A stretch of DNA of 63,691 nucleotides, the filler included, from Reclinomonas americana ATCC 50394 (Eukaryota): assembly GCA_048213135.1 (NCBI GenBank). It is 15 parts of 15 records of this genome, joined end to end, with 100 filler letters (N's around TTAATTAATTAA, not from the genome) between each part and the next. Parts side by side here need not be neighbours in the genome. Positions count along the whole stretch, not along the records: positions 33,254 to 43,246 come from AFZH01020237.1; positions 43,347 to 44,938 come from AFZH01020238.1; positions 45,039 to 49,450 come from AFZH01020239.1; 12 more parts are not named here. One strand, written 5' to 3'. The position numbers and the translations under genes were made by a program. The notes under the pieces were generated by a model that worked only from the letters and a program-made list of their open reading frames with translations, was not told the origin of the DNA and ran no database searches. Each line of letters begins with the position of its first letter. Position 1 is the stretch's first letter. Positions 11,641-48,886 of this stretch are shown piece by piece.

Positions 11641-12230
11641 GGCGATGAGTGATGAAGAGGCGAGGCAAGGAGAGGCAAGAGAGAGACGCAACAGCTCGCA
11701 GTGATGCGGCCTCGGCGGCCGCTGCAAACATGAGAACGCTGCCGGATCGTTTGCCGAGGATTTCCGGGGTGGATGGACGGCGTGCGCGAGAGCCCTGCAG
11801 ATTGGGGGGAAGGGCAAGATTAGCTCGAAGAGAGAAAGAATACACAAGGACTGGATCATGTCTGCGCGACAGAGTGCTGAGCGGCACAAGGAGAATGAAA
11901 CATCGACACTTTCGGAAACAAGTGCACAGGGATGAGAATGAAGGAGACATACAAAGCAACGGGAGACAGGATCACGTCTGCCTGATGGGAAGTGGGTGAG
12001 AGATCTGTGCGATTGTCTCTCAAGAACAAGAATGAAAGAGAGAGAGAGAGAGAGAGAACGCAAAGAGAGACTGCGACAAGCTGTACTAAGCAGCACAAGG
12101 GAAGGGCAACATCGATGCTCCTGTCCCTCTCGGAAATAGTGCATGGAAATGAGAAGAAGAGACAAGGAGAGAATGCGGAGAAGCGCATGGATCACGCAGT
12201 CCCTGCGCTCTCTCTCTCTCTCTCTCTCTC

Positions 12231-12330
12231 NNNNNNNNNNNNNNNNNNNNNNNNNNNNNNNNNNNNNNNNNNNNTTAATTAATTAANNNNNNNNNNNNNN
12301 NNNNNNNNNNNNNNNNNNNNNNNNNNNNNN
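12231..12330. other. Artificial assembly gap spacer N44-TTAATTAATTAA-N44 (also at 13945, 16814, 23687, 25151, 30091, 33154, 43247, 44939, 49451, 54901, 59656, 61198, 62522)
   Basis: Identical 100-nt spacer containing a six-frame stop linker. Confidence 0.98.
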
Positions 12331-17391: not shown

Positions 17392-18529
17392 ATGTTCTCT
17401 CGTCGTTGGCTCGCGCGTCTTCCACCCATCGTCGCCTTCTCACTCGCCTCACCAGTGACCACTGCAGCAGCAAGCACCACGTTGTCGAGCACACGAATGG
17501 ACATTATTCCGGTGCCGATTCTCTCCGACAACTACGCCTACCTCATTGTCGATCGCCGCACACAGCAATGCGCAGTGGTGGACCCCGCCGAGCCCGACAA
17601 GATCGAGGCCGCACTGCATCATCACAAAGTGCACCTCACTCATATTCTCACCACGCACAAGGTTTGTGAGAGAAAGGGAGAGAGAGGGACAAGCAGCAGA
17701 TTGTCGCTCTACTGATGATGGATCGTCAGCATTGGGATCACGCTGGTGGCAATGAGGAGATGCTTCGTCGCTTTCCTGCGGTGACAGTCGTGGGAGGCGC
17801 GCACGATGCCATTCCTGGTGTGACGCAGGCCGTGGAAGACGGGGATGTGTTCCCGATTACCGACGCCATCAGCGTTCGAGTGCTCTTCTCGCCGTGTCAT
17901 GTTGCGTTCGTCGTGCGTGCCAGTGCAACTCGCTTCCTCGTTTGACAGTCATCGCTGCATGGCAGACGCGCGGCCATGTGTTGTACTATGTGACGGCCGC
18001 GGGCGACGAGATCGGCAGTCTGTTCACGGGCGACACGTTCTTTGTGTGCGGCTGCGGCAAGTTCTTTGAGGGCGATGGCGCGCAGATGCAGGAGGCCGTC
18101 GACAAGATCCGCCAGCTGCCGGCCACGGTTCGGGTTTTCTGCTCTTGTGCCGAGGGTGGCAGCTGTGGACTTATCTCTCAATCGCAGACTCTGATGTGGT
18201 GCGGCCACGAGTACACGGCCGGCAACATTCGCTTTGCGGAATCGGTGGACCCCGACAATGACGCGTTGCATTCGAAGGCCGAGTGGGTCCGCCAGCGACG
18301 CGAGCACAGCGATCCGCCACTGGTGTGCATTCTCCTCCCTCCTGTGTGTGCGTCTATTTACTTACCTGCCCGCATGAGACAGCCGACAATTCCATCGTCG
18401 CTGGCCGACGAGTACCTCTACAATCCCTTCATGCGTGCACACACTGCGGAGATGCGTCAAGCCACTGGCAAGGAGACGCCGGCCGAGGTGATGAGCGAAC
18501 TGCGGGCGATGAAGGACCGCTTCAAGTAG
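17392..18529 (+). CDS. HAGH: Hydroxyacylglutathione hydrolase (glyoxalase II), 4 introns, N-terminal presequence-like extension
   Basis: DNYAYLI, THK|HWDHAGGN, PCH|TRGHV, LFTGDTFFVCGCGKFFEG, CGHEYT, PTIPSSLADEYLYNPFMR motifs. All four introns are GT-AG and restore frame. Confidence 0.95.
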
Positions 18530-20253: not shown

Positions 20254-21494
20254 ATGTCGAACATGGGTGAACTGTTGGTGGGCGCGCTCGCTGGCAGTGA
20301 GATCGCGCGAGAGTGGAATGCCATGGCGACACTGTGCGCAGAAGCGCGAGCAGTGTTGGGCGACGACGACGACGAAGAGCGGGAAAAGTTGAGTATGCAA
20401 GATGCTGTCGAGGAGACACCGGATGAGCGCGTTGAGCGGGCCATTTGTGAGCAACTGGTACGCATATTGTGCGTAAAACAAAAAAGACTGATTGAAAAAG
20501 CTCTCATGTGCCTGTGCAGGTGGAATCGCGAAAGCGTCCATTTCCGGTCGATGTCGACGAGGACGAGAGTGCGTTTCGGAAGCGGCGGTGTCGCGGCTAC
20601 CTACACAACCCGCAGTTAGTGGCGGAGACGGTGGATTTGCAGGCAATTCCACCAGTGAAGCCGGAGATGATGTGGTCGACGGAGTTGGAGACGTGCAGGA
20701 CGGGGAGGAGTGCGTTGCCGACGCGCGTGCGGCAAAAGGACTTGAATTTTCTGCGGAGAGAGAGTGGGGCGGCGGCGCAAATGGCCGAGGTGCCGGTGCG
20801 CGAGGGCGAAGTGGTGATGACGGTGGCGTTGTATCAGCCGCGAAGGGGCGTCAAGTGGCAGGAGTTTGAGGTGTTGGGCTCGCAGACGCTGCAGTCGCTG
20901 CGCGAGAGGATCTACTGTTTGCATGATGTGACGGCGGCGGAGGTGTGCCCGGAGAATCCGTCGGGCACGGGATTTTTCTTTATCGAGAATACGATTTATG
21001 CGAGCGGCGAGGAGGAGAATGCGTCGGCGACGCTGGCGGAGTGGTTGGCGCGACCGGGTCGGTGCACGCAGTCGTGGGTGTCGCCGCCTGCGGGGCGCGA
21101 GCCGGCGGTGCCGCCACCGATTGTTTCAATGGAGGCGACGACGTTTTCGGCGCTCACGTTTCGCCTGCACCGACCGTACGTGTATGCGCATCATGGCGGC
21201 GCGTGTGAGCATCGCATGGTGTTTACGCAGTGTCGACTGTACGATCCCGCCTCCACCACGTGTCGCAACGCGGCGCAGTATCCGCATCTCGTGTTCCAAG
21301 CGCGCTTCCGGCGACGCCGCTGTCTCGTGTGCAATTTGTACTATGCCGAGCGCGTGCTGCACGGCGACGCCATGGCCACCGAGGATCCGGCCTTTTTCTG
21401 TCTCAGTTGTTTGCGGCGGATGCACTACGAGAAGGATGGAACGCTGCGGAATGCGGCCGATGCGTTCAAAATGTACACGTATTATCATGAGTGA
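20254..21494 (+). CDS. SNAPC3: snRNA-activating protein complex subunit 3 (SNAP50)
   Basis: QEFEVLGSQTLQSLRERIYC, GFFFIENTIY, YVYAHHGGACEH and C-terminal CxxC...FCxxC..MHY zinc finger. Intron 20458-20519. Confidence 0.92.
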
Positions 21495-23655: not shown

Positions 23656-23786
23656 TGAACAACGCAAGCAGTGAGACAGAGAGAGANNNNNNNNNNNNNN
23701 NNNNNNNNNNNNNNNNNNNNNNNNNNNNNNTTAATTAATTAANNNNNNNNNNNNNNNNNNNNNNNNNNNNNNNNNNNNNNNNNNNN

Positions 23787-24570
23787 AAGTTGGACAGTGG
23801 TGCTGCTTCTTCTTTCGCTTTTGCTGCTTGTCTTCTCCTGCTGCGCCTGCTGCTGCTCCTGATATCTCTCCTGCTGCTTCAGCTCCTGCTCCTGCGCCTG
23901 CTGCTGCTTCGGCTCTCTTGTTGTTGCTGCTCCTGCTATTCCTGCTGCTGCTGCTGCTCCCGCTCCTGCTCCTGTTGCTACTGCTGCTGCTGCTCCTGCT
24001 GCTGCTCCTGCTGCTGCTCCTGCTGCTGCTCCTGCTGCTGCTCCTGCTGCTGCTCCTGCTCCTGCTCCTGCTGCTCCTTTTTCTGTTCTCTTATTCCAGT
24101 TCGTGCTGCTGGTGCTCCTGTTATGTCTCTTTCTCCTTCAGCTCCCGCTGCTGCTCCTCTTGCTTTTCTTCTCCTGTTGCTCCTGCTTCTCATGTTCCTC
24201 TGTTGCTGCTGCTGCTCATGATGCTCCCTTTTCTGTTCTCTTATTCCAGTTCCTGCTGCTGGTGCTCCTGTTATGTCTCTTTCTCCTTCAGCTCCCGCTG
24301 CTGCTCCTCTTCTTTTCTTCTCCTGTTGCTCCTGCTTCTCATGTTCCTCTGTTGCTGCTGCTGCGCATGATGCTCCCTTTCTGCTCTCTTATTCCAATTC
24401 CTGCTGCTGGTGCTCCTGTTATCTCTCCTTCTCCTTCAGCTCCCGCTGCTGCTCTTCTTGCTTTTCTTCTCCTGTTGCTCCTGCTTCTCATGCTCCTCTG
24501 TTGCTGCTGCTCCTCTTGCTTGTGCTCTCTTATTGCTCTTCCTGCTACTGCTGCTCCGCTTGCTGTTTGT
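23787..24570. repeat. CTG/CTC-rich simple repeat with ~140-bp higher-order duplications
   Basis: (CTGCTGCTGCTC)n plus three copies of a TTATTCCA…GCTGCTGGTGCTCCTGTTAT…TCAGCTCCCGCTGCTGCT block. Confidence 0.8.
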
Positions 24571-27559
24571 CGCTGTGCTGATGGCGCAGCTGGTTCTTTT
24601 TCTTCGTGGCAGTGCAATGGTCGATCGCATACTCACAGAAAGAGAGGGAGCGAGGCAGACTAGCTTTCTCGAGTCGCTGATTTAATGTCTGTCTCTTTTG
24701 AGAAGTAACTCACCCTTGTGCAAACTTCCCACCCCCTCACACAGAATCGACAACTGCGCGCTCAGCTGGCCACTCGCTCCGAGCAAATGCTGGCGCTGTT
24801 GCGCGCCTCGCCTCGCGGCCACCCCTCGGCCTTTGCTCGTCCCTTTGATGCGTGGCACTCGGGCGTCGAGGAACCCGAGGACGATGTCAGCGGGCGCGCG
24901 GTGCCGCGTGCCGGCAGCGTCAGCGGTGGTGGTCGCAGCAGCGGTGGCAGAAGAGGTGGCGGCGGCAGCGGCGGCTTGCCCGGCCACCAACGCAGTCCGT
25001 CGACCGCCGGCGGCCGCAGCAGCAGCGGCGTCGACGACGACGACTACGATGACCACGTGCTGTACGACGGCACCGAGGACGACGAAGACGAGGAGGAACG
25101 CCGACAGCGGCAGCAGTTGCTGGGCGCCGACGACAGTGAGCGACCACAAGNNNNNNNNNNNNNNNNNNNNNNNNNNNNNNNNNNNNNNNNNNNNTTAATT
25201 AATTAANNNNNNNNNNNNNNNNNNNNNNNNNNNNNNNNNNNNNNNNNNNNCCTCATGTCCTCACCGCCCGTGACACTGCCCGAGGAGCAAGTGACGCTGA
25301 TTCTCGCCGAGCCACTGGACGACGGCGACGATCACCACCGCCACCACCACATAGTGAAATGAGTGGACTTTCTTTCCTTTTTACACGAACAAGGAGAGTT
25401 GCTTCATTGCCGTGCTGCAGGCACACAAGTCTCACTCGCGCACACGCATGCGTTTTTGCTTGTTTTACAGAGCGCCAGAGGTGTGAGTCACGCCCTCGGT
25501 GGCAAAGTGCACCGAGGCCGCTCCGTGTGCGTCTGTTGACACGGCCTCCGTGTCGGTCAGTCCAGAGGTCTGCGCACAAAAAGAGAAAAGAGTGAGCACA
25601 ATGAGAGGGCACAAGACACACACACATGCGCGCGCACACGCACCGGATCACTGGCAGTCACGGTGATGGAGTCGCTCGGTCCCACTGCACATGCAGACAC
25701 ACGCAATATAGAGTGAGTGAGAGAAGTTTCTCACTTGATGGTTTCGCATCAGAAGCGCAACTGATGGAAGTGGCAATCGACATTCCGCTGGTGGCAGAGG
25801 CCGCGTTGGTGCCCGATGAGTTGTCAGTGCTGTCGTTGTTGCCGCCGCCGCCGCCCATTTTTTGTGATAAATGTGTGGAGAAAAGGGAGAAAGTGAACTG
25901 CGCGCGCGTGACAGAGAGAGAGAGTGAGTATGTGAAGTGAGAGAGCGTGTGTGTGTGCGTCTTTCAATGTGCAGTGCGACTGCGAGTGCTCACAAACCTG
26001 CGAGAATGTGTTTGTGTGTGTCTGCGGGCAAGTTCGCGCACGTCGCGGGACAGCGGCTGCGAGAATGTCACACACTCCGCGTGCCCATGCCCATGCGCGT
26101 CTGTGAGGGGAGAGTGGTGGAGAGTGTGTGTGTTGCGTCAAGAACGCGGAGTGTGGTTGCGAAGAACGTCGAATTTTATGATTGTCAAGTCCGTGAAGTT
26201 TGCGCGTGGTGAAGCATGTGCGGCAACGTCGTGCGCGGTCGGCTCCCTAGAGGTGGAGAGGTACAGAGCAGGTGCGTGTGAAGCAACGTGCGCGATGACG
26301 TCGGCAGGCAAGAGCGCAAAGACGTCGACGTCGACGTTCGAATCTAGAAAATTCTCGTGATCAATATCGACACGAGTACAAGCTGGTGCATACAAGCAGC
26401 ATTGTGTCATGCTCCCTGTCATGTCGCAAAGGAAGAGATCATGGCAACAAAAGTCCTGTCCGTTTCGACCCATTTTTGACTTGTTGCATGAGTGGTGAGT
26501 GTGTGCCAGACAGCTGCAGAGTGCTTCATGCTGCTCATCTCTCTCTAACATTAGGAAAGCGTGGACGTGCGTGGAACACTGCAGCAGCAGTGGGTGCAGG
26601 CGGCAGTGTCGGTGCTGCGAGTGCCTCACATCCTCCTCCTCTTCCTCCGCCTCCTCCGCGCATCACTCGAGGAGAGGAAGAAGAGGAGGAGGTGGAGGTG
26701 GGCGGGAGTTCAAGTCGGCGTGCGACTGCCTGGGTGCGGCCTTTGCCAGTGACGGCTGCAGGTGGCGGGAGAGCAGCAGCGGGATCTGCAGCTGTGTCTG
26801 TCGCCACTGCTGCTGCTCCTCCACCTCCTCCTCCTCCTGCGGAAGAGGTGTCGCCTTCACCGGCGCCGGGCGAAGTGGAAGCAAGTGAGTTTCGAGCGAG
26901 GAGGGAGAGGAGTGAGTAAGAAGAGAGTACGGAGAAGGATGATGTCTTGCAAGCAGCTGCTAGTGTTGTCAACGACGGTAGCTTCACGTCGACAGGCAGC
27001 ATGCAGTCTGGAACTGTGAGCTCTGCGGGATTGATCAGTGGCGGCAGTGTGAGGACAGTCGGCAGTGTGCGATCGCGCACTGTGAGTTGTGTGCAGCCTG
27101 GCATGAGGAGCTGCAGGCATGCGTTGCTCATGCCCAGAGAGAGATGGATTGTAAGAGGAAGAGATATAAGGAGAGACAATAAGCGAGAAAGGTGTGATGT
27201 TGACCTCTGTATTGAGGCATGTTAGGAGCGTGAGATTCACGAGCACGGAGAAGAGGTTGAACAACAGCTGTACTTGTTGATCACGAAGAAGAAACCAGAC
27301 ACGTCGTCTCGCTGACACCTCCTCGTGTGCAGAATTTTCCCGCGAGAGACTCACGTTTGGTCGAGTTGTCGGCCTGCGCGTCCGCTGCTACAACTCGCAG
27401 CGGTCGAGTGCACTCGGTGGCGAGGATCGACTGCAATCGCATCCCGCCGGTTCGCTCTCTCTTTCTCTCTCTCGGTGCTCGTCTCTCTTGCGCACCGCTC
27501 GCTCCTCACTGCACTCGCAGTGTGCTTGTGGTCCAGCGACAGTCACCGCTGTCACTTGC

Positions 27560-33253: not shown

Positions 33254-33286
<33 letters not shown>

Positions 33287-34004
33287 CGACAGAGAGAAGC
33301 GACAGAGAGGGAAGCGAGAGAGAGAGAAGCGACAGGGAGGGGAGCGACAGAGAGAGGGGAGCGACAGACAGAGAGAGAAGCGACAGAGAGAGAGAGAGAG
33401 AGAAGCGACAGAGAGGGAGAGAGAAGCGACAGAAAGGGAGAACCGAAAGCAAACGCAGCACACCTCCTGCCCATACGCCAGCACAGTCTGATTCATGCCA
33501 CGCATAAAGTCGTCCACCAGCGGCGCCACCGCCTCAGAAAACACTTGCTCCTGTCACCACCACATCGCTCTCCCAATCAGCAACACGCACCAAAAAACAA
33601 GCAAGAGAGAGAGAGAAAAAGGAGGAAGCCGCAACATTGGAGACGCCAAAGCCAAACGCATGATCAAACTCTGCATGAAGATCGAATGTGAAATCAAGTT
33701 CGCGCGCAGCAGTGATGTGTGCGAGTGAGAGAAACGCAACTGAATCGGCGACCACCAACCACCACCAATCCCTCCGTGTCCACCGACACTGCGCAAGATC
33801 GTCAATCACAGCAAAAAAACACATAAGGAATGACACGCACACACACACCATGTGAAGCATCGCCATCGCCACGATCGGGGCCCACCTGTACGCACACAGA
33901 GAGAGAGAGAGAGAGAGTGAGTCAGCAAAGAAGCGAGAAAGACTGGGGTTTGCGACGAGTGCAAACATGGCGCGCGCGGGAACAGTCACACGCACGCACG
34001 CACG

Positions 34005-34039
<35 letters not shown>

Positions 34040-34409
34040 CGACACACTCCCTCTCTCTCTCTCTCACACACACACTTCTGCCACACACACATAGAGACGC
34101 AACTCGAACAGCGACCTCAAACGCACGCGGGGTGCCGCGAGGTGCTGCTGCAGTAGCTGCTGCGGATGATGCACCGACTTGGCTGGTGGCTGTGCTGGTG
34201 CCGGTGGCGGTCGACGCTGCATCACTCTCGTCCCCCTCTTCCTCCTGCTGCTCCTGCTTTGCGATCTCCGTGGCCATCTCCGCTGCTGCTGCTGCTGCTG
34301 CTTCCTCGTGGCGATCGCCGTGCTCACTGGTGGGTGTGGCGGCGACGTCGATCGGCGAGGGTGCCGATGAGTCGTCGGCGGGGTCGACGAGGTTGGCGGG
34401 CGACGACAT
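31039..34409 (-). CDS. Kinesin: N-terminal motor start (34409-33465) and long coiled-coil tail (33153-31039); most of the motor presumably lies in the gap
   Basis: FEVAVRV…EFDHAF…EQVFSEAVAPLVDDFMRGMNQTVLAYGQ (just before the kinesin P-loop). Same-strand heptad exons continue on the adjacent contig to a stop at 31039. Confidence 0.78.
33254..33440. repeat. (GA)n / AGAGAAGCGAC tandem repeat in kinesin intron
   Basis: Directly visible. Confidence 0.85.
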
Positions 34410-34689
34410 GCGCGATTGTGTGTGTAAGGTCGGATTGATGGAAATCGACTTTTGCTGAAAACAAGGTTGTTTTGGCGATGTAAACGGATCGCACAAGCGA
34501 ATGTGTGGAGTGGATGTAGTGGGAGGAGTCGTCGAGTGACATAGTGCGCCAGACACATGCGTCAACGTGGACATGATAATGACAATATGGTGGCCATGGT
34601 TGAACTTGGTCATCAAGACAGCTGTTGCTTGTTTGTTGGTGAATGAATTGTTGTTGTCTCATTCGTTGCCAGCGATCGGTAGTACCTTC

Positions 34690-37600
34690 ATTGCGCGCTA
34701 CAGAGATATGTGCAGTAGGACAGAACTTCCAACAGCAAGTCGCAAGCGGGCAAAAGAGAGTTGCCGTACGCGTACAGAGATACGCTCAACAGTCCCACGC
34801 GCTCGTCACTGGTACGAGCACACTTGCGGGTACAGCGTTAGCTTGTACGTTGTAGACGCGTTGGTGTTTTGGTCATCAGACGTCTCAAAACCTCCGATAA
34901 GTGCGACAGACCTTTGAACGCCGGACAACGGATAAGCGCAACAGTGTGCTATTCAGACAGTGTACAGTGCAACCCAGACACTCACATGCTGTCACCGGGC
35001 CATGGAACTGTCGTTGCCTGTCGGCGACGGAGCTCGAATGCAGTGTTGTTATCCAAGTCGTCGATTACATACTGACTCCAACCCTGATCCGGCGACGACA
35101 GATCGAGAACCTGAGGCATCGCAAACAAAGATGAGAGATGCGTGTCACCATGCGGTGGTGTTTCACACATACCTGTATGTCAGTCGCATAATCGAACGAC
35201 TGCGAAATGTCGAGGTCGTAGAAATTGTTTGAGATCTGGTGGAAAACTCCGTTCTGTGTTTATCACAGTCGCGGTCAGATCAGGGTTGGTTTCAAATACA
35301 CCTCGACAACGATATTGAGAGCACGCACTTGCACACCACCAAATACATACAGCTTGTTGTTCACGACGACAACGTTGCCTTGCACTCGAGGCGTAAGCAT
35401 CGGAGAAAGAGTTGACCTAGACAAGACAAAGTGAGCCCAACGCAAGCAGAAGACACTTCAGCAACACAATTTCAATGCGCAAACCATTCATGAGATGCAA
35501 TTGTGTACGACCATGCTCCGCTGCAAACTGCCGGTCCGTCTTGGATGTTAAGACCACCTACGAAGTAGATTTTGTCACCTTCCGGACTGACGACCTGCGT
35601 TGCGGAAGTAAGCAACATGCAACATTCTACGCGGACGAGGCACTTGAAGTTCGTACCCCTTGCAAGTGAGTGCAGCTGGTCGGGATATAGTTCGAACTGC
35701 CATCGGCAGAAGCACCGCCCACTGCAAACAGCCAATCAGTTCTCCAGGAAACCCACATATCGTTTTTTGCGATTTAAACGAACTGGCGGCCATGTTTGCC
35801 AAAGCCATGACGTTTTGCATCACCAGGAACACTCTTACGTCAGTGGGATCCGGACTCATCAGCGGGAAATTGCCTGACTGACTCACGTCTGAGGCACACA
35901 CGCGTAAAAGTATATGGTGAGCTCACAAGACAGCCGCACGAGATCGCGCGAATACTGACCCCAGTTGCAATTTGGCGCATCACAGTTAGTTCCAACATCT
36001 AGAACGTTCCCATTCCCATCGGAGCTACTCGAGCTACGCACATCGTGAGATCGTGGACTGACTCGTGACATCACCAAAAGAGTTTCACGAGTGCACCCAC
36101 CTCTGCCTGCAACAAGAGAATCACGACACGAATGAATCAACTGGCACAAAATACGAACGAGAAAGCACATCAGGAACTTACATGGTCGACAAGTCATAGG
36201 TGACTTCGAATCCTTGGTTTGGCTCGAGGCAGTTATTGCACGAACCTGACGTACTGAATACAGTGCCGAGTACTCGAAACGTGACAGTTGTGTTTTGAAT
36301 CGCCTTCAAATAAAGAGCTCCGCCCCAAGTGGTATAGCCAATATTGTATGCGCTCCAGACGCGAGCTGTACGATTTCAAGTGACCGTTAACAAATGATCA
36401 GAGCGCGAAGAAAGTGTTGATAACACTACCATTTGTATCATAGATCTGAAGCACGGACATGCCGGTGCCAGCGTTGGGTTCCTCGACTGATCCACCGTAG
36501 CAGAATATCTTATTCGTCGGCGCGTAGCTTACGCACGCTGCAGACGACAGTTAGCAGACCAGCTCAAAGCTGTGGACGACATGAGACCAAGCGATCAATC
36601 TCCTCACCAGTCAATGCAGCTGCGTTGATCATCTGACCAACTGCCGTGGCTCCCTCCGGAGTGTTCTGCGACAATGTATGAGCGGCTCTGGCAGTCACCA
36701 AAATACGCAATGAAGCAAAATTACGAAGCTGAACGAGAATAGTCCAAGATTGCAGCTTGCAGTGCTTGTTGAATCGTCGCATCTTGAACCAAGTTCCAAA
36801 GCGGACTTAGGCGTACTCTGCAAAACCCACATCAAACCGCGTGTCAACGCACGCTGCACACATACGCACGCACATGAATGCACGCTTCGTTGACACGCCG
36901 ACACTTACTTGGTGGGCACTGGGAATTGGGAAAGTGATCCAAGCCAGTCACTAAACGGAGCATCGGCAGAAAATGGCGCCGTGGAAGGATTGCCACCGTA
37001 CATGAGAACTTGATAGTGAAAATTAGAGTTGTTGTTCGACAGCATATCAGACTGAGCGTGTAGGACGTAGATTTTGAGGACGACAACCTGCACCACACAT
37101 ATAGAGCACAGCACGTACCAGAGTATCACCAACGTTTAGTCCTCCGCTGAGAACATTTGCAACTGTCAACTTGAGACCAGCAGTCACTGTCGTAGACGAG
37201 GCGCTGGACATTGCGGCTGCATCCCATGAGGCTGCAATGGCTGCAACAAAAAAGCACCGAGATCAGAACTGTTGAGTTCAAAGGATTCTCTTCAGCGCAC
37301 AGAACAAACCAAGATGTCCTCCGACTGCAGCATTGTACAATTAAATCCGAAGGCAGTTAGCAACAACAAGGAGTCACTCTCATCTCAAACAAAACCGCAA
37401 CGCACTAAGAGCCTCCAGAACGAAGTGCGTGCCGAAGGCTGAATAACAAATGATGCGCAAACTTTCAGTAATGTGACAGACAAAGATTATCGATCTGCAC
37501 AGTACAGGCCACCATTGATGAAGCTTGAGAACTGTTGGCAAGTCGAACTGTTGAAGCTTTGCGGCAGCAACAGGAGCGACGACGAAAAGACGTCAGAGAG

Positions 37601-37839
37601 CGGCGGAGTCCAAGAGAGGAATGGGCCAGTTTGCCACCTGGAGCAAAGGAACGGTAAGAACGATGAACGGACGCACGTAAAGAGGATGACATAGCGCACA
37701 TTGCCCGGAAAAGCGCGACATCGCCAGTGGACAGCACAATTGTTGTCGATGAACTCGAGGACCGAGAGTTGTACATAGAAACCCCAACGTTCACAGAGCC
37801 GCTCACAGGAACACCTGGGGGAAAGTGTGTTTGAGTGTG

Positions 37840-37879
<40 letters not shown>

Positions 37880-38605
37880 CGCGTGTGTGTATGTATGTGT
37901 ATGCGTGTGCGTGTGAACAAGTGCTCGTGGATGCAGAAGTTGCGGCGCGTGAACACAGACACGGAAGAGCGCGGTGGGCACCTGGCACAGTAACATCCAG
38001 ATTGGCAGACACTGAGAGTGTCGAAGACGTCTGCTGTGCCGAAGACGCAGCAGTCTCGGAGTGCGATATGTCAGTGGAATCGTCCACGAGCACGGTCAAG
38101 AAGTCAGGCACAGCGGCAGGTTGGCCGAGCACGGACGTTTGCGACCGCGACTGAAAAGTGAAAGGCGCAAAAATCGCCTGCCCAGTGATGCCCTCTATGG
38201 GTGGGTACAAATTCATCGAGTTGAAGCCGTAGCGGAACACACTGTCGATTGCCGGGAGAACTGGTGGTGAAGCGGCAACCGCTTGTTGCAAAGCTGTTGA
38301 ACAAGTCAACAAGACCATCACGACTGATAATCATGCATGGAGAATGAATGCATACAAATCGCGTTGGACACACCTGCTGTCAGCTTGGCAATGAGAACTG
38401 CCGCAGCTTGGTCGGCCGTGGTCATGCCACACGCATCGGTTGTCGTCGAGTTCGTGGGAACCGTCACACCAACTGTTGTAGGGTCCGCACTGAGGGGTGC
38501 TGTCGCTGCGCGGCTGCCCACTGTGTGGGCGGCGGCGACGGCAGCCGTCGTCCACAGCAAAGCGAGCGCGCAAGCGAGCGCGATGAACAGAGCAGCACGC
38601 GTCAT
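34690..38605 (-). CDS. Secreted MACPF-domain protein with C-terminal Kelch repeats (MACPF-1)
   Basis: Signal peptide MTRAALFIALACALALLWTTAAVAA. N-terminal LPAIDSVFRYGFN…AVPDFL. Spliced signature TCQQFSSFIN|AFGTHFVLEAL|IGG (~37520-37316). YGGNP…SDWLGSLSQFPVP. Kelch motifs KIYFVGG, TPRVQGNVVVVNNKLYVFGG, SVALIGG. 3' end approximate. Confidence 0.85.
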
Positions 38606-38736
38606 GAGCTCACGCGAAGCACAAGACAAAATGTTATGTATTGGGGGACGCGCGGAGTTGCACAGCGCGGGGTAAATTGGACGCGAAATCGACTCAGCGA
38701 GCAAGGAAGGGGGACGACAATACACTTCCTTACCCC
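38606..38736. promoter_or_regulatory. Putative bidirectional promoter between MACPF-1 and the FN3 membrane-protein gene
   Basis: Divergent predicted ATGs only 131 nt apart. Regulatory function is inferred from geometry. Confidence 0.5.
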
Positions 38737-41467
38737 ATGCATCGCGGGCAGGCCGCGGTTTCGGCGGCGGCAGTTGCCATCGCTCTGCTCATCGTGGCAA
38801 TGCTGGCAAGCACAACACTTGCTGCTCGGCAAGACGCGCATGTGCGTTCCCGTCTCCCGCTGTCGTCAAACAAGTCGCGCCCTGCTGTGCCCCGAAAGCC
38901 TGCTGTCACCGGCGGTCTCCCCGTTCGTCGATGCGTGCAAGTGCCGCCGGCCACGTTGCACTGCACATTCAGCTCTCCCGCTGGACTGCTCTTCAGTCAA
39001 TCTGCTGTTGATTTGCGCGCGGACATTATCCTCTCTGTCAGTGAGCCGTCAACATCCTCTGTCTCGTTCTGGAGCGAATCCGTGGGACGGAATTGTGTGT
39101 GAGAGTCGTGCGCCCGTGTACTGCTCGTCTGCATGTCGTCAAATTTTAACCCACACGTTCTCTCACATTCACAGCAACTGTGACTGCGCCGCTTGCCAGT
39201 GTCGTTGCGCAACAGACACCATCAAGTGGCAATGATGCTGGTATACGGGGACTTTGCTTGCCGAGTATTCTGGGGGCAAACAATGCATCGCCGAGCGGGG
39301 CTTGCCTCGTCATTCGTCCCCAGACTTGGCGCTTTGAGCCAGTTCTTGGTCGGGTGCAGCTGGACTTGTCTCTCCGTTTCAGCACGTCTGCTGGCGGCGC
39401 GTTTACCATGACATGGGATTCGGTTACCATTGATTCATCAGGTAAAGTGGACTGAAGCGTGCACTTTGCGCGCGCTGCCTCCTGCCAGTGTGGTTCACTG
39501 ATCGTATTTCTCTGTTGAAGATGTCTACTTAATGGCCGAGAGTCCAGCTGTCAGCGGCTCTGCGAGTGCCGGACCTGTGGTGCTCATTGAACCGCGGCCA
39601 CAAACCCAACAGCACGTTGTCTTGCAACGGCGCACTGGCACCTTCAGTCCCACCGACACTGTGACACTGATTCCTGTGGACACAACTGACCCTTCAAGTA
39701 TTGCCTTCAGTCTCTTCTCGGACGCAAGCCTATGCCAGCGCACACCCGTATCATCATCGAGTGCTATGAGTGTCGTCGGCCCGTTCTCCATCGACTCCAA
39801 CGGCAAGCAGCTCACTGTTGGCGTAATCGCCCGTGCTGCCGCCGGTACAGAGGTCCCCATCTTCGCTGTTTGCTACTCTTCCAACAGAATGACTGGCCTT
39901 TCGCGTGCTTTGAACCTTGCACTCGCCGTCGGTGAGTCTCAGCAATCTATGCGTCGTCACTGGCCGACTTTTGTGAGCTCACTCGATAATGCGTATGTTC
40001 AATAAGAAAATCTTGTGCCTCCGTCCAGTTCGCCAGTTAACGTCGAAGTGGTGAGGTCGAGCGAATCGACTGTGACTTTGACGTGGAATCCACCGCCGCA
40101 CGAGGGCTTGTTGGAACCGCAGAGAGTGAATTACATGGTGTCCTACAAGGTCGGTGGTGATTCGACACAAGCAAGTTCGGTAGTGACGCAGCTTGCTGAA
40201 ACGGAGACCACAACAATTACGGTAAGGTTGTTGGTAGCGCTGTTTGTGCTGTTGCATCTTACTGATCGATTTCACTTGCGCAGGGCTTGTCTCCACTCCA
40301 AATCATCCGTGTCACAGTCGCCGCTGCGAACAAGGTCGGTATCGGGCCGCCATCGTTTTCACTTGTGTGCCAAGCAGCTGGTAGGAGACACTGTTGTTCA
40401 CTCCTAGTGCGTTCGCCTTACTCACCGTCATGCACTCATTGTTCAGCTCCTCTGTTGCCGACGGCTCCAGTGGGCCTGCATGTTACCACCGTTATCCAGA
40501 ACGGTGTCACGTTGAGCTGGTCGCACTCTTCGACTGTGCAGGATCCGTTTGTGTCCGCAGCAGTGCGAGCTCTTCCAGCAACAAGCTCCAGTATCGCCTT
40601 CGCACAGCGATCCACTTCGAGTGCAGATGACGCTGACTCAACCACAACGTCACCCACGAAGAAATACATTTTCGAGTTCGTTGAAGTCGGTGACTCGCAG
40701 GTACGTGCTTGCAAACTAGCTTATTTCACACCCAGATGATAACTTTTGCTGCATGATTCAGCACGTGCGATCAGGCACCAAGCGAGTGGGACCTGTAACG
40801 CTGCAAGGTACTGCAGTGCAGTCAGATTTGGGAAGCTTGACTTTCCAGCACACGCTTGCTGACGAGGTTTGGATGCACGGTTGTTGTCGGCACGCAGTGA
40901 TCGACATTCTCAGTATGATATCGTTCGTATTTCACTAGGATGGACTTGACCCGAACTCGAACTACGCCGTGCGAGTCCTCGAAGTGAACGATGCTGGCGA
41001 GGGAACGCCATCTTTTTCTGCTCTGTTCCGAACTGGGCCTGCAGGTGCGCCTTGAGTCCGCATTCTTTGCCGCTGGCCATGGGCGCTGACTTACGACCTC
41101 CTCTCTCTCTCTCTCTCTTGCCGTCCACAGCCCCTGTCGTATCGCCATCCCCAAACCCAGGTCTCTCTGCGGGGTCGATAGCGGGGATTTCAATTGGTAC
41201 TGTCGCCGGTGCTGTCATTCTCGGAGTCGCAATCGCGCTCGTCGTTCGCCGTCGTCGCCGTCACGCTGCTCGCCCTCGAGCACAGCAGTTTTCGGTTTGC
41301 GCATTCGTCGTCAAAGGCACAGACGTGTATAGAGAGTTCTCACACATATTATTATTGTTCAGCTGAATGACAGTAACGAACTTGCGAGTGGTGTCCTTGG
41401 AGAGCCGTTGCTGCGTGACATGCCTCTGTCGACGTCGAGTGTGCCTACGGGTGTGGCTAGCGCGTAA
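38737..41467 (+). CDS. Type I membrane protein: signal peptide, beta-rich ectodomain, two FN3 domains, TM helix, short tail
   Basis: SP MHRGQAAVSAAAVAIALLIVAMLAS. FN3-1 PVNVEV…TVTLTWNPP…YMVSY…GLSP…VTVAAANKVGIGPPS. FN3-2 PTAPVGL…VTLSWS…GLDPNSNYAVRVLEVNDAGEG. TM SIAGISIGTVAGAVILGVAIALVV followed by RRRRR. Tail …GEPLL…GVASA*. Confidence 0.88.
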
Positions 41468-41582
41468 ACGTTGCCAGTCTTCAGAGATTCAAGCCACGCT
41501 TAAGGATTCTGGATGACCAACAACACATTCGAAAAATGAATGTACCTCGTCATCATTCTGAGTATGTCAACCATGAGAAGAT

Positions 41583-44500
41583 TCAGGCGCTCAGCTGAAC
41601 AATAACTGCATATTCACGGCCTTTACCAAGTGCCGACTGCAGACGCTAATCTGCTGCACTCCAAATCACGAGTACAGACTTGAAAAGTCACACACGGATG
41701 ACACGCGAGTGAAGCGGCTCATGAGAGCACCGGTTCCATTGGGGCCAGCTGAAAAAACCACTGACATCGTCGACGGACTCGCAGGGTGAGCAAGCGCTAA
41801 GAAAGGTGTCGTCCCTGCACGCAAACCAGATCGAAATCAATCACGTTGACGACCAAACGACTCGGATCACCATGCCTCAAACCTGAAAAATCGAATTTGT
41901 CGATTACAGTCCAGCGAAGAGAACTTTGATCCAAGAAGTAGACGGATCCATCCTACGCAAAGTGCACACGGAAGAAGTTCTGTCAGATAGGAACCTTGCC
42001 AAGCGACAGCAAAATTGCAGAATGGAGTGGTGGAAGACGTTTTTGCAACCCGCAGACGGCAACCAACCTCACAAAACCCAAGGACATCGTCACCGATGTT
42101 CGTCATCGTCGACCCAATGAACCGGCCGCTCGGGCATACGGGGGGTGGATTTGTGACGGCAGGCACAGTAGCCCTAATTAAGCCTTTAGTCGCAGCAGCA
42201 GCTGCATCGAAAATCATCTGAATGTACAAACCATGCAGCAGCTGTCGCATTGAGGGCAAGGACAGCTGACGGCACACGCGATCCGACAAATGAAGAATAG
42301 AACAAGTGGGGTATCCCAGCCACCAAGCCCTGCGACATAAAGAGTTAGCATGCAAATCACATGAGTTCAATACGCGAAGAATACACAAGCACACACGTAC
42401 ACAAGCACACAAACACACGCGAACCAGACTAAAGCTGTTGATGTCAACTGTAGATGCCCAGCTGGGCAGCGCGAGCGTTTGCCACGGAGAGAAACCTTGT
42501 GTCAGATCTGTCGATCCACACCACAATAGACTTCCAGCAGCACCGTTCGCGTGCGAGAGACACACAATCAAGGAGCCGGTGGAATCGATCACCGCAAGCG
42601 GTGCGTCCAGCGGAAGTTGCGGTAGCTGCGGGATGGTCTCAGGAGCGGCCCAGCTGCAGAAAATTCGTCAATGGAGGAGATAGTCGCAACGAGACATAGA
42701 GAGACAACGAACGTGTCGTTCGACGAAAAGTACTGCATTACTTGAGTGGAGTTGGCGGCAAGGAGTACAACGCTGTCCGTTGTGAAGGCGGGCGAAAAAT
42801 CATTCTCAAACGTTGCTTGGCCCTGCGAACTTACGAGAGTAAACGCCGCAGTGTCCGTCGCGTTCAGTACAGCAGGTGGCAGGGATGAAGCTGAGGAGAA
42901 CCAATATCCCGTGTCTGCGCGATCGCACGGAAACGGAGAGTTCAACCAACAGGGTAACGGCACAAATTGTGCAGCTTGGGTTTCTGCACCTGTGTGAAAC
43001 AGGCGGAGAGAGTACGCTGGTGCGTTCACACCGTCACCGATGTACATCAAGGCGACAACAAATTTTCCAGAAGATGATGCCGCTGCTGTACAACACACCT
43101 GTGAGATGAACAGACAATCCGGAGTGCACTCTCTGAATCGACAAACAAGAGCAAAACGCGACGCAACAAAATCCTGTGGCAGCGCTGTACGGCACCGGTG
43201 TCACGCCGATCTCATCTAGCGCAACTCTGGATGGACCAGTAATCCANNNNNNNNNNNNNNNNNNNNNNNNNNNNNNNNNNNNNNNNNNNNTTAATTAATT
43301 AANNNNNNNNNNNNNNNNNNNNNNNNNNNNNNNNNNNNNNNNNNNNTTCTCGACTGGCTTGCAACAAAGCTGTCTGGTTTGCAGGTGGCAGTAATCGCCA
43401 CAGCGGCTCCAATACAAAGCTGTGTCGAAAAAGATTTGAGGTCGAAGAAATGGGAGAGAGGGGGCGTAATAGAGCACATGTCACGCAACTTGACAGGCAC
43501 TGGCGCAGCAGTTACAGTCTGATTCCACAACGACAAACTACTGGGGTCATCGGCAGTGGTAAACACACTAATGTCACCACCGCCAACTGAGTCTGCGAAA
43601 TTCGTAGAATTCGACGTAGTGGAAGCCTCCGACAACTGGTTGTCCACATTGACACGATGAGGAAGCAGCGAAACAATGCACAGAGACATTAACCACGTAC
43701 CATCGAAGTTGAATGCGAAATTGAGAACAGGAACAAGTTCACCGACCAAGTTGTCTCATGATAGTACAGCGAGAATGACTGCGTGCTGTCGAATTCGTAC
43801 ACTCGTCGCAAGTATCCACTGCGATCAAGCGCTCAGCCCGCAACAGCAACAGGAAGTTCCCACAGATTCACGTACCCTGACTGCATGCTAGATACGAAAT
43901 GAGTGCCGTAGAATTGCAAGAACTGGCCAAATATCTTGCAGCTCCCAGAATCAACAACCGACGGCAGGCGGGCAAGCGATGACTTGAAACCAGTGGACAG
44001 GTTGAATCCGGGAGAAACGGCATCGTATGGTGGAGACCACCTGAGTGCCAGCAAGTCAATACACTGTCAAACACAACCGGCCAACAAAACCGAGTACGCA
44101 TGTGCCTGAGTTGTTGTGTGACGAAGTTTACACGTGTGCTGGACATGACTTCACTGGCACTTGAATCGTCCTCCGTTGTCGTGGATGACTCGTAAGTGAC
44201 TGAGCATTTTGTGAGATATGTAACGCAGTAACAGCAGAATAAACAGAGCACAATGCACGTTTTCATACCGAAGAATGCGTCGAACCCAAATTGTTGGTTG
44301 TTGATTACTGACGATTCAGTCTGTGACGAAAACCAGAGAGTCTCCGGGTATGCGACCTGCGGCTCGTCATATATGACAGCCTGCAGCCCATCAGGGACGG
44401 AAAACTGTTCTTCTCCGTCGCTCCGCATAGCTTGAACAGTCCTACACACAGGCACGTCCAGTCAATCACCGAAACACGGGAGAGTTGTGCAAGAAATGTG

Positions 44501-44935
44501 ACACACTGATCGCTGTCGAATGACAGAGAAAAGACGGAGGTCCCAGTGGACGTGCCAGTGCGTGCATCAAATCCTGAGAGCATGACTGCCGCATCGGGGA
44601 TCATTGGATCTGACATGCATGGTTGGGGGACGCATATCAATATAGATCAAAATTTCTCTCTCTCACACACACACACGACACGTGCACGCACACACGAAGC
44701 TTCGGCTTCTTCACGCACCGCGCATTCCGGCAATCGTTGACGACTCCGCCATAGTTGCATTGTTGCTGGACGCAAATGCAAGTGCTGCAATTTGCGCGAG
44801 GCACTGCGTCACTGCAGGAGACTCGTCGCTGACGACCGGTGACAATGCTGCCGCAGTACTACTGCCATGCACGACAACCACAACAACAATACATGCCACG
44901 AATAAGGCAACGCAGTTGTGTGCGAGTCGCAGCAT
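41583..44935 (-). CDS. Secreted MACPF-domain protein (MACPF-2) with beta-rich C-terminal region, interrupted by gap 43247-43346
   Basis: SP MLRLAHNCVALFVACIVVVVVVHG. IPDAAVMLSGFDARTG…FSVPDGL. SCKIFGQFLQFYGTHFVSSMQSG|G. VGGGD…SLWNQTVTAAPVPVN|FVLEPLWRLL…ALLQASRE. Assigning exons 43246-41583 to this gene is inferred from strand and position. Confidence 0.85.
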
Positions 44936-45038
44936 CGANNNNNNNNNNNNNNNNNNNNNNNNNNNNNNNNNNNNNNNNNNNNTTAATTAATTAANNNNNN
45001 NNNNNNNNNNNNNNNNNNNNNNNNNNNNNNNNNNNNNN

Positions 45039-46802
45039 CGTCCGAGAGGAGGCCACCTGAATCGTCGACTCCGCCAATAGCCACAAACGTGCTGCTCCAA
45101 AACAAGTACGACGATGTCGGCGACGGTCATCACGCGCAACAAAATGGAAAAATCATGAACAAACTCTGACGCTGTGGGCCAAGGCGCTGTTGCGACACCG
45201 GAGCGTGCGAACAGGCTGTATGGGTCCGGAACAATGGTCCAAGTGCTTGCAGCGATGTCAAAAGCGACTGCAGTTGTAACTGCCTGCGGCCCTCCGTCGC
45301 TCTGCGTAACCTATTCAGCAGCTGTCGCAAACAAAGAAAAAATGGCATTACTCACCGACGAGTAACCGCCGAATACAACAATCAGTCCTTGTGAATGCGC
45401 AGCTGTGGCGTTCGCCCTCGCCAGTGGCATCGACGGCAACAATTCGCTGCGAGAGACAACCGAGTCAACAACGATCATGGCATGGTGCTAGTCTGCTGAT
45501 ATGTGAACGAACAATGTGTCCGTCTGCACGAGATACATGTATGCCGCATCGGTCTCAATCGTCTCGTCGCACTCTGAATTGCCTGTAGAGTGACATATGC
45601 ATATATTTGAGCTCATGTTGACTGAAACTTGTAAACTGGAGAACCAGATCACCTGAACTACCCGAGCACTCGACACCACCGAAGATGAAAATCGAGTTAT
45701 TGTAGGCAACCTGCACATTGCAGCGCGAATCAGTGTGACATCTCAGCAGTTTCTACGGCGGTGCAAAGTTGACATGAGATACAGTACCATCGCGGCACCA
45801 TTGACTTGAGGGGTTGATGAGACACTGCTGGTGTCTTGCCAGGCAGGCGGTGGCCCATCTGAGAGCTGCGAGTCAAAAAGTGGCCCATGCAATCAATCGA
45901 ATGTATACACACAACGATTACTTACTTTGGGGTCGATTTCGAAAGTCGGCAAGTTGAGGTAAAACACCGAGAGAAATCTTTAGCGCGACTCCGCCTGCAT
46001 ACGCAACTGTCTTCCTGTCGGAAAGCGCACTATCGCTTTGCTGGCTATAAATATTCCAAGTTCCTGACCTGCACGTGCACAGACAGCAGATTAATGGGTG
46101 CACCCGAGTGAGAAGCCAACGAACTTTTGACGATTGATAGAACACTATTCAACGAACATCCACTGGTACTGAAGCCATTGCTCGTTCCACACAATTTGCT
46201 GGCCGTCGGGGGATACCCTGCTGCCGCCGTAAACCATGACGTAGTTGCACAACGAAGAAGTGCTCACATCGGGGCAGAGCACGGTGAATGCTTGCACGTC
46301 TGTCCAATTTCCAACCTGAGACGGGAAGGTCTCCTGTGTATTCCAAAACCCAGTACCTTCGAGTTTACAAAGAGGGAGTGGGAAGAAAGTTGACAAGAAT
46401 CAACGGTAAGCTGGTGGAAGGGCATTCAACAACTTACCCAGATTCAGAATTTGCAGCACATTTGTCTCTTGAAGAGTATCGTCGCCAGGAGCCATGCGCG
46501 TGCTTCCGCCGATAACGAACAACAACTGATCGGTGGCAGTGGCAGCTGGAGTACGAGCGTTCATGTCAATGGCAACGAGCATCGGAAAGGTTGGTGATGC
46601 TAACGAACCAGCGTGCGTTACAGGCATAGGAAGAGTGACATTAGCAGCGGACAGTTTGATCTGGGCGAGTCCTTGCAAATAATCATTGATTGCAACCGCG
46701 AACGCAGCGCGCACGTCGGGATCAGCCACAAAATCCGCAACAGAGCGCAGTTTAACGCTGCAAACACAATACAGCCGTGGGAACTCAGAGTAAAGCGGAA
46801 GC

Positions 46803-46833
<31 letters not shown>

Positions 46834-48296
46834 TTGCATGTGTGTGTCTCACGTGTGTGTTCGTACAGATGCGAGCGACCAGGAGGCCAACAAAAGAGCA
46901 GCGTACCTCAGTATCGTCGGGTTTCCCGCGATAGTCTTCACCCACGCACCGACGTCTGTTGACTCTTTGTCGCCGCCAAATATGTTGGTGGTCGAACTGC
47001 ACTGCGTGCTAGCCTGCAACAAGCTCTGGTACTGCTCGGACGACAGACCAAATGAAAAGACCTGATTGTCGTCACCGCCAACAGCAGCAGCGACATCGCT
47101 CAAGGTTGAACCAAGTGGCAAAGAAGTGCTCGAACTCGTCGCCCCGGTAATGACGGCTTGCATGGAAGCCGAAAACGCCTCGGTTGCTTCAAACGAGCTG
47201 AATTCTGCAGTCTCGGTGCAAATGCCAGACATGGCTAGAGAGGAAAAGTGAGAAGGCACCAAGGCAAATGGCATCTCACCAATTGCCACACAAAACGCAA
47301 CTTGTCGCACCGCCAATTGTGACTCCCATAACAACAGACGTGCCGTAGTAGTCAAACATGGACTGGAAATACTGGCATGTGGTAGAGCTCCCGTCGTAGC
47401 CAAGTGGCGCGACTTGCCTCGACACAGACGCGCTAAACGACGGGGTTGGTGGAGGAAGATCGTCAACGAACGCGCCGGTGTCGTAAGTTATCTCAAGTAG
47501 ATTAACGCTGTACGCGGATTGCGCAGCGAATCGCGTGACACTGCTCGACTGCGTGTCCTCATTGGCGAAAGATGCACTCAAATTCAAGCCGCCCAAATCA
47601 AGGGCGACACCGGTTGACGATGAACTGGCAGTCAGCGAGGTGGACGAAAATGACGATGTGGTAACCGAGTCACTACGGAAGTCGACAGGGATCACTGACA
47701 CAGTTGATGGTAGCAAATATGACTTGCCAGGTAAGGGCGTGACAGTACTCCACGTCACAGAGGACCCGTCAGTGGTCGATGTGATGTTGAATACGCCTGC
47801 TCGGAGACCAGTGATTGGAGGCATCGGCTGCGGAAGTGTGGGTGTGAGAGTGCTGAAGATCAAGCGCGCATTCACAGAGAAATCAAAGGCGTGCGAGTTG
47901 AAAGCATTTTTCACATACTCTCACCTCCACAACGTCGAAGCCTGCTCCGATTGCGTTCAGGAATGGCGAAGTAACTGGGACCTGCAACTTCAACGGGGTT
48001 TGTGACACCATTTGTGTGCGGACCACATCTGTGACATCGTGTTATATTGGGGGACGCTGATGCAGACTTGATCCAAAATCGATCACATGCGCGTGAGTCT
48101 CACCAGCGATATCGGGAGGCAAGAAGGAGCCAGACAGGTCTGCAACACCAGCAGCACTCAAGAGGCGCAGGATACCAGTCGGTGAATTTGTGTCACTACC
48201 ACCGCACGACTGGGCACTCGCAGAGTGGACGGTTGCGCAGAGAGTGACAACCAGGAGCAACAAAAAGGAGACAGCATATCTGCTGCCAGGGCGCAT
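45039..48296 (-). CDS. Secreted MACPF-domain protein with Kelch beta-propeller (MACPF-3), 3' truncated by gap
   Basis: SP MRPGSRYAVSFLLLLVVTLCATVHSA. TCQYFQSMFDYYGTSVVMGVTIGG. IFGGD…GAWVKTIAGNPTIL…VADFV…AFAVAINDYL. Kelch motifs LLFVIGG, YVMVYGG, SIFIFGG, IVVFGG, FVAIGG. Confidence 0.85.
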
Positions 48297-48886
48297 TAGG
48301 AGAAGAGTATCGTTGCCGCGCAGATCGGTACACACACGGAGTTCCCCAATGCGACACAGGACACTGTAATGACAGTGAAGTTGTCTTGCCGTCTTGCTCT
48401 TTACACTGATTGAGGGGAAATGCACAAATATCTGCAGCCGCCACAAATTTCTGCTCCTCTTGCTATGGTTTCACTCTTGCAGTCACAGGCTCCTCATGGG
48501 CCGGGCAAAAAACAAATATCGACCGGAACTTCGATCGAAATTGCCAATCGAAAGAGATTCGACTGCTTTGAAAGAGGCCTGCTCGTTGTTTGGATACTTT
48601 TCACGTGACCACCACTTGTACGGAACATGGCTTTCGTCATGAGATCGCTGTCGTCAATGCACGCAGCCATTTGCAATTGAATTCGACTTCGATTTCCTTC
48701 TTCCGCCCGCATCGGTATGTTCGCTTCCTTCCCTCACTTCTCCACCCGCTCCCCATCCTCCACCCTCTCTCCTTCCACCCAGACCTCACACCCTCCCCCA
48801 AACCTTCGTTCGACCGTGTCCGATTGCGCGAGCAGGCCGTTGAAACTGCCTCCGTCCTGTTTTTCAAGAAATCAGTGAGACAAGGC

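Follow-up and report, generated by a model that had tools for sequence, protein, structure and literature searches.

MACPF proteins make the pores in complement, in killer lymphocytes, in parasite egress and in several toxins, and what varies among them is mainly the ancillary, target-choosing domain. Here we describe a locus in a 63,691-base stretch of DNA from Reclinomonas americana ATCC 50394 (the window), which carries three genes for predicted secreted MACPF proteins (genes 1, 2 and 3) and, among them, a gene for a membrane protein with two FN3 domains. Apicomplexan PLPs and other protist and fungal MACPF proteins carry a signal peptide, the MACPF domain and a C-terminal membrane-targeting domain, which is β-rich and specific to each lineage, and occur as families of several paralogues. 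To our knowledge, this C-terminal domain is not a Kelch propeller. The genes described here follow the same general plan, but relatives of PLP type would be expected in protein libraries, and none matched the 214-amino-acid (aa) exon of gene 3 or the signature exon of gene 2. In pleurotolysin, the MACPF protein PlyB needs the separately encoded membrane-binding aegerolysin PlyA. Perforin-1 and complement C6–C9 share with the present genes an aligned MACPF signature region, a signal peptide and a C-terminal ancillary domain. We scanned the 147 open reading frames (ORFs) of at least 60 aa and without N on both strands of 33254-49450, a scan in which shorter ORFs and small exons would be missed, and found no aegerolysin, TSP1, LDLa, EGF or C2 domain. 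The locus differs from pleurotolysin in that it has no aegerolysin-like ORF in this set; the candidate partner is the producer's own FN3 transmembrane protein, an arrangement for which we found no precedent. It differs from perforin-1 and complement in lacking their C2, TSP1, LDLa and EGF domains, the ancillary domain of genes 1 and 3 being a Kelch array. The identity to these proteins is also too low for detection with a single sequence, and there is no evidence here of sequential hetero-assembly.

The apple-snail toxin PmPV2 consists of a MACPF chain and, joined to it by a disulfide bond, a six-bladed propeller lectin, which brings the toxin to membranes (bioRxiv 10.1101/2019.12.23.880021). 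The likeness of PmPV2 and PcPV2 to the present genes is that a MACPF pore-forming module is combined with a β-propeller that would bind the target surface (bioRxiv 10.1101/2019.12.23.880021; PMC3667788). The PV2 toxin has two chains, one disulfide and a propeller of tachylectin/tectonin type, whereas here the two modules apparently lie on one polypeptide and the repeats are of Kelch type. MACPF paralogue families and clusters are ordinary. We did not find a MACPF–Kelch fusion among the papers listed by full-text searches, whose coverage leaves out most subscription journals.

We favour, with somewhat better than even confidence, the reading that three secreted MACPF paralogues, old and strongly diverged, stand in tandem at the locus, with a MACPF–Kelch architecture in genes 1 and 3, and that the products are separately targeted pore formers. 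Genes 1 and 3 encode a signal peptide, the MACPF domain, a short conserved linker and five or six Kelch repeats, whereas the C-terminal region of gene 2, of ~300 aa, is of a different kind. The three genes share the minus strand, and in the spliced models each combines a signal-peptide-like start with the MACPF motif series, as an earlier note on this DNA had proposed. The starts, recognized by eye as hydrophobic stretches at the first Met of the ORF in all three genes, are MTRAALFIALACALALLWTTAAVAAA in gene 1 (ATG at 38605), MLRLAHNCVALFVACIVVVVVVHG in gene 2 (ATG at 44935, 3 nucleotides (nt) from the contig end) and MRPGSRYAVSFLLLLVVTLCATVHSASA in gene 3 (ATG at 48296). The signatures read in that note, FGTHF-x6-GG, YGTHF-x6-GG and YGTS-VVMGVTI-GG, each after C-x2-F, are present in the spliced genes: CQQF-SSFINA-FGTHF-VLEALI-GG in gene 1, CKIF-GQFLQF-YGTHF-VSSMQS-GG in gene 2 (signature exon 44063-43876) and CQYF-QSMFDY-YGTS-VVMGVTI-GG in gene 3. 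The later motif, noted as GG...W-x6/7-P, reads W-x7-P in all three spliced genes, with YGG...W-LGSLSQF-P in gene 1, GGGD...W-NQTVTAA-P in gene 2 and FGGD...W-VKTIAGN-P in gene 3. The consensus motif given in PMC7593815 is Y-x6-[FY]-G-T-H-[FY]. Gene 1 (F-x6-FGTHF-x6-GG) and gene 2 (F-x6-YGTHF-x6-GG) keep its core but have Phe where the consensus begins with Tyr. The 1448 six-frame ORFs of the window contain 7 occurrences of a looser core, [FYW]G[TS][HS][FYVILl-type], three of which are the signatures of the three genes.

The Pfam profile PF01823, run on each ORF piece, bears out the MACPF assignment of the earlier note in part: gene 2 scores over the cut-off of 21.5 bits, gene 3 gives two matches under it, and gene 1 gives none. 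In gene 2, the ORF 43836-44066 matches profile positions 42-86 with 29.8 bits (E 8.4e-7), and a second, colinear match at 43347-43755 covers positions 140-188 with 15.3 bits. The two matches of gene 3, 15.7 bits (profile 22-89, 47279-47920) and 13.2 bits (profile 129-192, 46852-47487), are colinear and fall in consecutive exons, each under 21.5 bits, with a plain sum of 28.9 bits. The spliced domains were also compared with one another by phmmer, with 300 shuffles of the target as the chance level. Gene 1 matches gene 2 with 30.4-31.7 bits and gene 3 with 31.6-32.4 bits, and none of the 300 shuffles reaches these scores in either case; since the gene 1 domain matches both of the others, it ties genes 2 and 3 together. 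Aligned over the MACPF domain, the three gene pairs are identical at 26% (66/257), 29% (84/293) and 22% (58/261) of positions, and blastp at the level of ORFs finds no match among the MACPF parts, in line with the statement in the note that the genes share little other sequence.

A profile built from the alignment of the three unspliced signature pieces (37490-37699 in gene 1) was run against all sequences of solved structures. Its best match is mouse perforin-1 (residues 166-215, 27.2 bits, E 3.3e-5), followed by a second perforin-1 entry. Lower rows hold two unrelated HSF4 entries (E 0.017-0.019), C8 alpha (E ~0.1) and C7 (E ~0.3), and MACPF proteins make up 8 of the 15 rows among the matches listed. 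The Pfam result, the perforin-1 match of this profile and the similarity of the spliced domains are consistent with the earlier description of the genes as secreted MACPF paralogues and candidate pore formers. MACPF membership is supported by these sequence comparisons, strongly for gene 2 and indirectly or partially for genes 1 and 3. No fourth copy was found in the window by a hidden Markov model (HMM) made from the three domains.

Kelch-family matches are found in 5 of the 19 pieces tested and pass the cut-off once each in genes 1 and 3. In gene 1, Kelch_1 scores 23.4 bits at 35278-35457 (cut-off 20.1), and further matches stay under their cut-offs (Kelch_3 with 16.9 bits, Kelch_6 with 13.6 bits). 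In gene 3, Kelch_1 scores 20.7 bits against the same cut-off at 45314-45487, one more repeat lies under it, and five hhhhGG blade motifs are seen in the model. Compared with each other, the gene 1 and gene 3 tails score 21.6-23.9 bits, a level reached by none of 300 shuffles. In both genes, the stretch from the MACPF domain to the first blade has neither a start codon nor a signal peptide, the splice phases are compatible, and the MACPF domain ends in a linker that looks alike in the two (V[RK]L..AI.DY, by eye). These features together suggest that MACPF domain, linker and Kelch repeats are read as one polypeptide. The order MACPF then Kelch recurs independently in genes 1 and 3, on different contigs. 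We infer that the repeats form a closed propeller, which probably finds the target. The tail of gene 2 is of another kind. None of its 4 pieces matches Kelch at E<=10, an HMM of the blades of genes 1 and 3 finds no match in it, and neither does phmmer; a single weak blastp match at the ORF level (E 0.004, 45 aa) connects it with the tail of gene 3.

The gene models come from a dynamic programme that weighs splice sites and codon usage, after which the MACPF parts were curated by hand. It takes codon log-odds and simple scores for donor and acceptor sites as input, and it allows introns of 45-700 nt. All modelled introns are GT-AG, and those set by the programme measure 45-167 nt. With canonical splicing, the reading frame stays open over 767 aa in gene 1, 385 aa plus the tail in gene 2 and 725 aa in gene 3. 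Apparent frameshifts near 37706 in gene 1 and near 47910 in gene 3 were considered and rejected, as canonical introns of 62 and 97 nt fit both sites. These introns, 37699-37638 and 47924-47828, preserve the frame and raise the similarity of the paralogues, so both genes look intact. The exons of gene 1 from about 36180 to 35630 are uncertain in the model. The 3' end of gene 3 is also uncertain: its last ORF (45310-44990) enters the contig gap at 45038, and the gene may continue there. The gap inside gene 2 has open frames of the same strand on both flanks. The coordinates of all features are collected in Table 1.

Table 1. Features of the MACPF locus and of the contigs that carry it (positions in the window)
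Feature	Position	Strand	Description
Gene 1	34806..38605	-	~21 exons, 767 aa; signal-peptide-like start, MACPF, linker, Kelch repeats; spliced model
Gene 1 MACPF region	36909..38293	-	Exons 2-8 of the model; domain cut into eight exons
Gene 1 signature exons	37637-37513 (..LPQSFNSSTCQQFSSFIN), 37438-37406 (AFGTHFVLEAL), 37324-37301 (IGGHLGLF)	-	Read from sequence, spliced
Gene 1 linker and Kelch repeats	34806..36817	-	Six hhhhGG blade motifs in the model
Spacer between gene 1 and FN3 gene	38606..38736	strandless	131 bp, head-to-head; gene 1 ATG (38605, -) to FN3 ATG (38737, +)
FN3 gene	38737..41367	+	ATG 38737; 3' end 41367 (unspliced) or 41467 (programme model)
FN3 domains	40039-40379, 40449-41043	+	Partial matches to Pfam fn3 (PF00041); an intron splits each
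FN3-gene transmembrane helix	41187-41243	+	ISIGTVAGAVILGVAIALV; mean hydropathy 2.47
Gene 2, probable 3' part	41500..43246	-	~300 aa with no family match; on the neighbouring contig; programme model
Gene 2, 5' part	43348..44935	-	7 exons, 385 aa; signal-peptide-like start and MACPF; frame open at contig end
Gene 3	45153..48296	-	13 exons, 725 aa; signal-peptide-like start, MACPF 48028-46907, linker and Kelch repeats 46757-45153
Contig	33254-43246		Gene 1, FN3 gene, gene 2 tail
Contig	43347-44938		MACPF half of gene 2
Contig	45039-49450		Gene 3
Contig junction (linker)	43247-43346	strandless	Splits gene 2
Contig junction (linker)	44939-45038	strandless	Separates 3' end of gene 3 from start of gene 2

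By analogy with MACPF proteins in general, each of the three proteins would be exported as a soluble monomer. The C-terminal ancillary domain would dock it on a ligand of the target surface, and in genes 1 and 3 the Kelch propeller may act here as a lectin-like or protein-binding module. The monomers would oligomerise, and two Ser/Thr-rich helix clusters of the MACPF domain would refold to β-hairpins that line a large pore. By eye, Ser/Thr-rich stretches are present at both positions of the hairpin-forming clusters in all three genes, and in gene 1 the two best β-amphipathic segments, LSVSANLDVTV and VPVSGSVNVGV, are adjacent where the first hairpin cluster is expected. That each MACPF protein has an ancillary region of its own speaks for pore formers that act independently and are targeted separately. 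The simplest account of how far the three copies have diverged is that their targets (prey, microbes or compartments) became different, and not that they form an obligate complex. If the MACPF–Kelch protein is real, it would be equivalent, in a single chain, to the two-chain lectin-MACPF toxin of the apple snail, an independent invention of the same solution, and three copies at 22-29% identity would be a natural series for following the co-divergence of targeting and pore domains. The distance of these sequences from the 1.84 billion representative proteins would also mark a sampling gap in eukaryotic pore formers.

Several results weigh against this reading. For gene 1, the Pfam MACPF profile finds a match in none of 8 ORF pieces at E<=10, and the 103-aa exon at 37983-38291 reaches a best score of 0.86 in the protein atlas, in cytolysin/MACPF clusters, which is a lead only. 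The 214-aa exon of gene 3 has MACPF clusters nearest in the same atlas (score 0.98, 20 of 30 matches), with clusters of cholesterol-dependent cytolysins next, but this is weak evidence because the recognition value of 1764 is below the bar of 2300 set by the tool. AlphaFold2 on the largest exon of gene 3 (206 aa) gives a pLDDT (predicted local distance difference test) of 32.9, with zero residues over 50, and so no evidence of a fold. The signature of gene 3, F-x6-YGTSV-x6-GG, departs from the consensus at the His and at the last aromatic residue. Genes 2 and 3 are barely alike when compared directly, with 1.9 bits in one direction (reached by 9 of 300 shuffles) and 6.2 bits in the other (0 of 300). 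Single pieces give nothing significant against solved structures: the piece of gene 2 finds perforin at E 1, and the gene 3 exon and the gene 1 piece find no MACPF protein. Nor does a profile of the C-terminal MACPF part find anything significant (best E 0.93). The β-amphipathic moment scan finds no segment over the shuffle maxima in any of the three genes. In gene 1, such segments do occur at the expected places of TMH1 and TMH2, but the two adjacent ones, with scores of 2.85 and 2.52, lie under the 95% level of these maxima (2.99) and are suggestive at most. The codon table was trained on ORFs from these same genes and the motifs guided some of the splice choices. Two introns placed by hand in gene 1 have lengths of just 31 and 37 nt, which is suspiciously short. 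A phmmer search with the 214-aa exon of gene 3 against 1,835,955,588 representative proteins returned 0 matches. Finally, some MACPF proteins are not lytic, and the astrotactins, BRINPs and Torso-like are examples from animals.

The blank in the protein libraries recurs in other searches. Word-index searches gave 6466 candidates for the 214-aa exon of gene 3, none of which scored, and 81 candidates for the 77-aa exon of gene 2, none at E<=1. Two metagenome scans found the patterns in 202 and 149 stretches, of which tblastn confirmed none. As a control, an ORF elsewhere in the window that resembles SNAPC3 (20496-21494) found one library protein only, from a sponge, at 39% identity. The libraries thus seem to lack close relatives of the host, and a blank search is therefore weak evidence of uniqueness, though it does show strong divergence.

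A MACPF fold in a non-lytic role (adhesion, signalling or development), in which the Kelch propeller would serve for binding, is unlikely in our view. It would fit the off-consensus YGTSV of gene 3, the lack of significant β-amphipathic segments in all three genes, the extreme divergence, the absence of a known lytic relative and the receptor-like FN3 protein next door. However, genes 1 and 2 retain the FGTHF and YGTHF cores with the following Gly-Gly, the Ser/Thr-rich stretches seen by eye occupy both hairpin-cluster positions in all three genes, and PmPV2 is a lytic precedent for a secreted MACPF protein combined with a propeller.

The earlier note had placed a single-pass protein with two FN3 domains between the first two MACPF genes. 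The protein is real and its position is correct, but its gene lies on the plus strand, opposite to the MACPF genes. The product runs in the order signal peptide, ~300 aa without a family match, two FN3 domains, a transmembrane helix and a basic stop-transfer stretch with a run of arginines. In FN3 domain 1, profile positions 1-52 match with 15.9-18.3 bits and the second half of the domain has no match; in domain 2, the matches reach 16.4 bits (positions 2-62) and 21.6 bits (positions 55-79). All of these are under the cut-off of 25 bits. The ATG of the FN3 gene is divergent from that of gene 1 and 132 nt away from it, and its 3' end lies tail-to-tail ~30-130 nt from the stop of gene 2. With the two starts head-to-head at this distance, it is possible that the spacer is a promoter common to both genes.

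The proposal that went with the FN3 protein was a hetero-oligomeric pore of the three MACPF proteins, resembling the membrane attack complex (MAC) of complement, with the FN3 protein as anchor, receptor or self-protection factor. Three different MACPF paralogues do adjoin on one strand, and the FN3 gene, with its start so close to that of gene 1 and possibly under the same promoter, does lie between them. Gene 1 resembles both genes 2 and 3 while these barely resemble each other, a pattern that fits specialised subunits and equally plain divergence. Still, each protein has its own signal peptide and ancillary region, as is usual for self-sufficient MACPF pore formers (PMC7593815), and neither the ancillary domains of the MAC nor an aegerolysin-type partner were found among the 147 ORFs scanned in the locus. 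The FN3 gene runs in the opposite direction, and as neighbours here are all 100-200 nt apart, its adjacency is weak evidence of a functional tie and carries little weight; a functional link of the FN3 protein with the MACPF proteins is possible but unsupported. We consider such a hetero-oligomeric pore very unlikely. An extended form of the separately targeted reading, in which lineage-restricted 'propeller-perforins' are one-chain Kelch-MACPF proteins in tandem copies of differing specificity, one of them sharing its promoter with an FN3 anchor or protector, is quite speculative as a whole and we give it little credence.

It is also very improbable that the picture is in part an artefact, with separate MACPF and Kelch genes, pseudogene copies, or a wrong contig order that fakes the cluster and the two halves of gene 2: the window is indeed a chain of 15 contigs of 1-12 kb, the reads that cover parts of it look like low-coverage pieces of ~450 nt, exon borders come from models alone with two unusually short hand-placed introns, and the 3' end of gene 3 and the start of gene 2 touch contig ends, but under canonical splicing no stop interrupts the three frames (767 aa, 385 aa plus the tail, 725 aa), the MACPF-to-Kelch order recurs in genes 1 and 3 on separate contigs, and the gap in gene 2 is flanked by open frames of the same strand.

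Within the FN3 gene, read-length contigs of two DNA runs (X1 and X2) cover 39358-39829 with 14 mismatches in ~470 nt (~3%), and that of X1 also has a 1-nt deletion. These differences could come from a second allele or from a close paralogue of the N-terminal region of the FN3 gene. Read-length DNA pieces at 40441-40911 are identical to the window. On the contig that carries gene 1 and the FN3 gene, the two runs cover just ~34.6 kb, 39.36-39.83 kb and 40.44-40.91 kb.

In the 147-ORF scan, only MACPF, Kelch and fn3 matches are found, together with three sub-threshold matches on ORFs antisense to genes 1 and 3: SopE_N (19 bits, 35233-35412, plus strand), AvrPtoB E3 (18.2 bits, 35648-35878, plus strand) and FXMR_C2 (19.9 bits, 46604-47062, plus strand). 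All three are under the cut-off and are taken as chance.

The host genome at the locus is gene-dense, intron-rich and eukaryotic. The window joins 15 contigs of 1.1-12.2 kb each by 14 identical linkers (12231-62621) of the form N44-TTAATTAATTAA-N44, which contain stops in all six frames, and the locus is spread over three of these contigs. The G+C content of the window is 49-60%, and its DNA is eukaryotic in style, with abundant short introns and (CT)n and (GT)n microsatellites; several contig ends fall in microsatellites or low-complexity runs. Rfam and transfer RNA scans of the window gave no match. Outside the locus, the 332-aa open frame at 20496-21494 on the plus strand, used above as a control, matches subunit 3 of the small nuclear RNA-activating protein complex (PF12251). 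Long open frames of poly-Leu and Ala/Pro-rich repeats lie at 23735-24663 on the plus strand, directly after a contig junction. By eye, one ORF at 17756-18529 (plus strand) resembles the C-terminus of hydroxyacylglutathione hydrolase (glyoxalase II), and two ORFs at 10014-12282 (minus strand) show EF-hand-like motifs.

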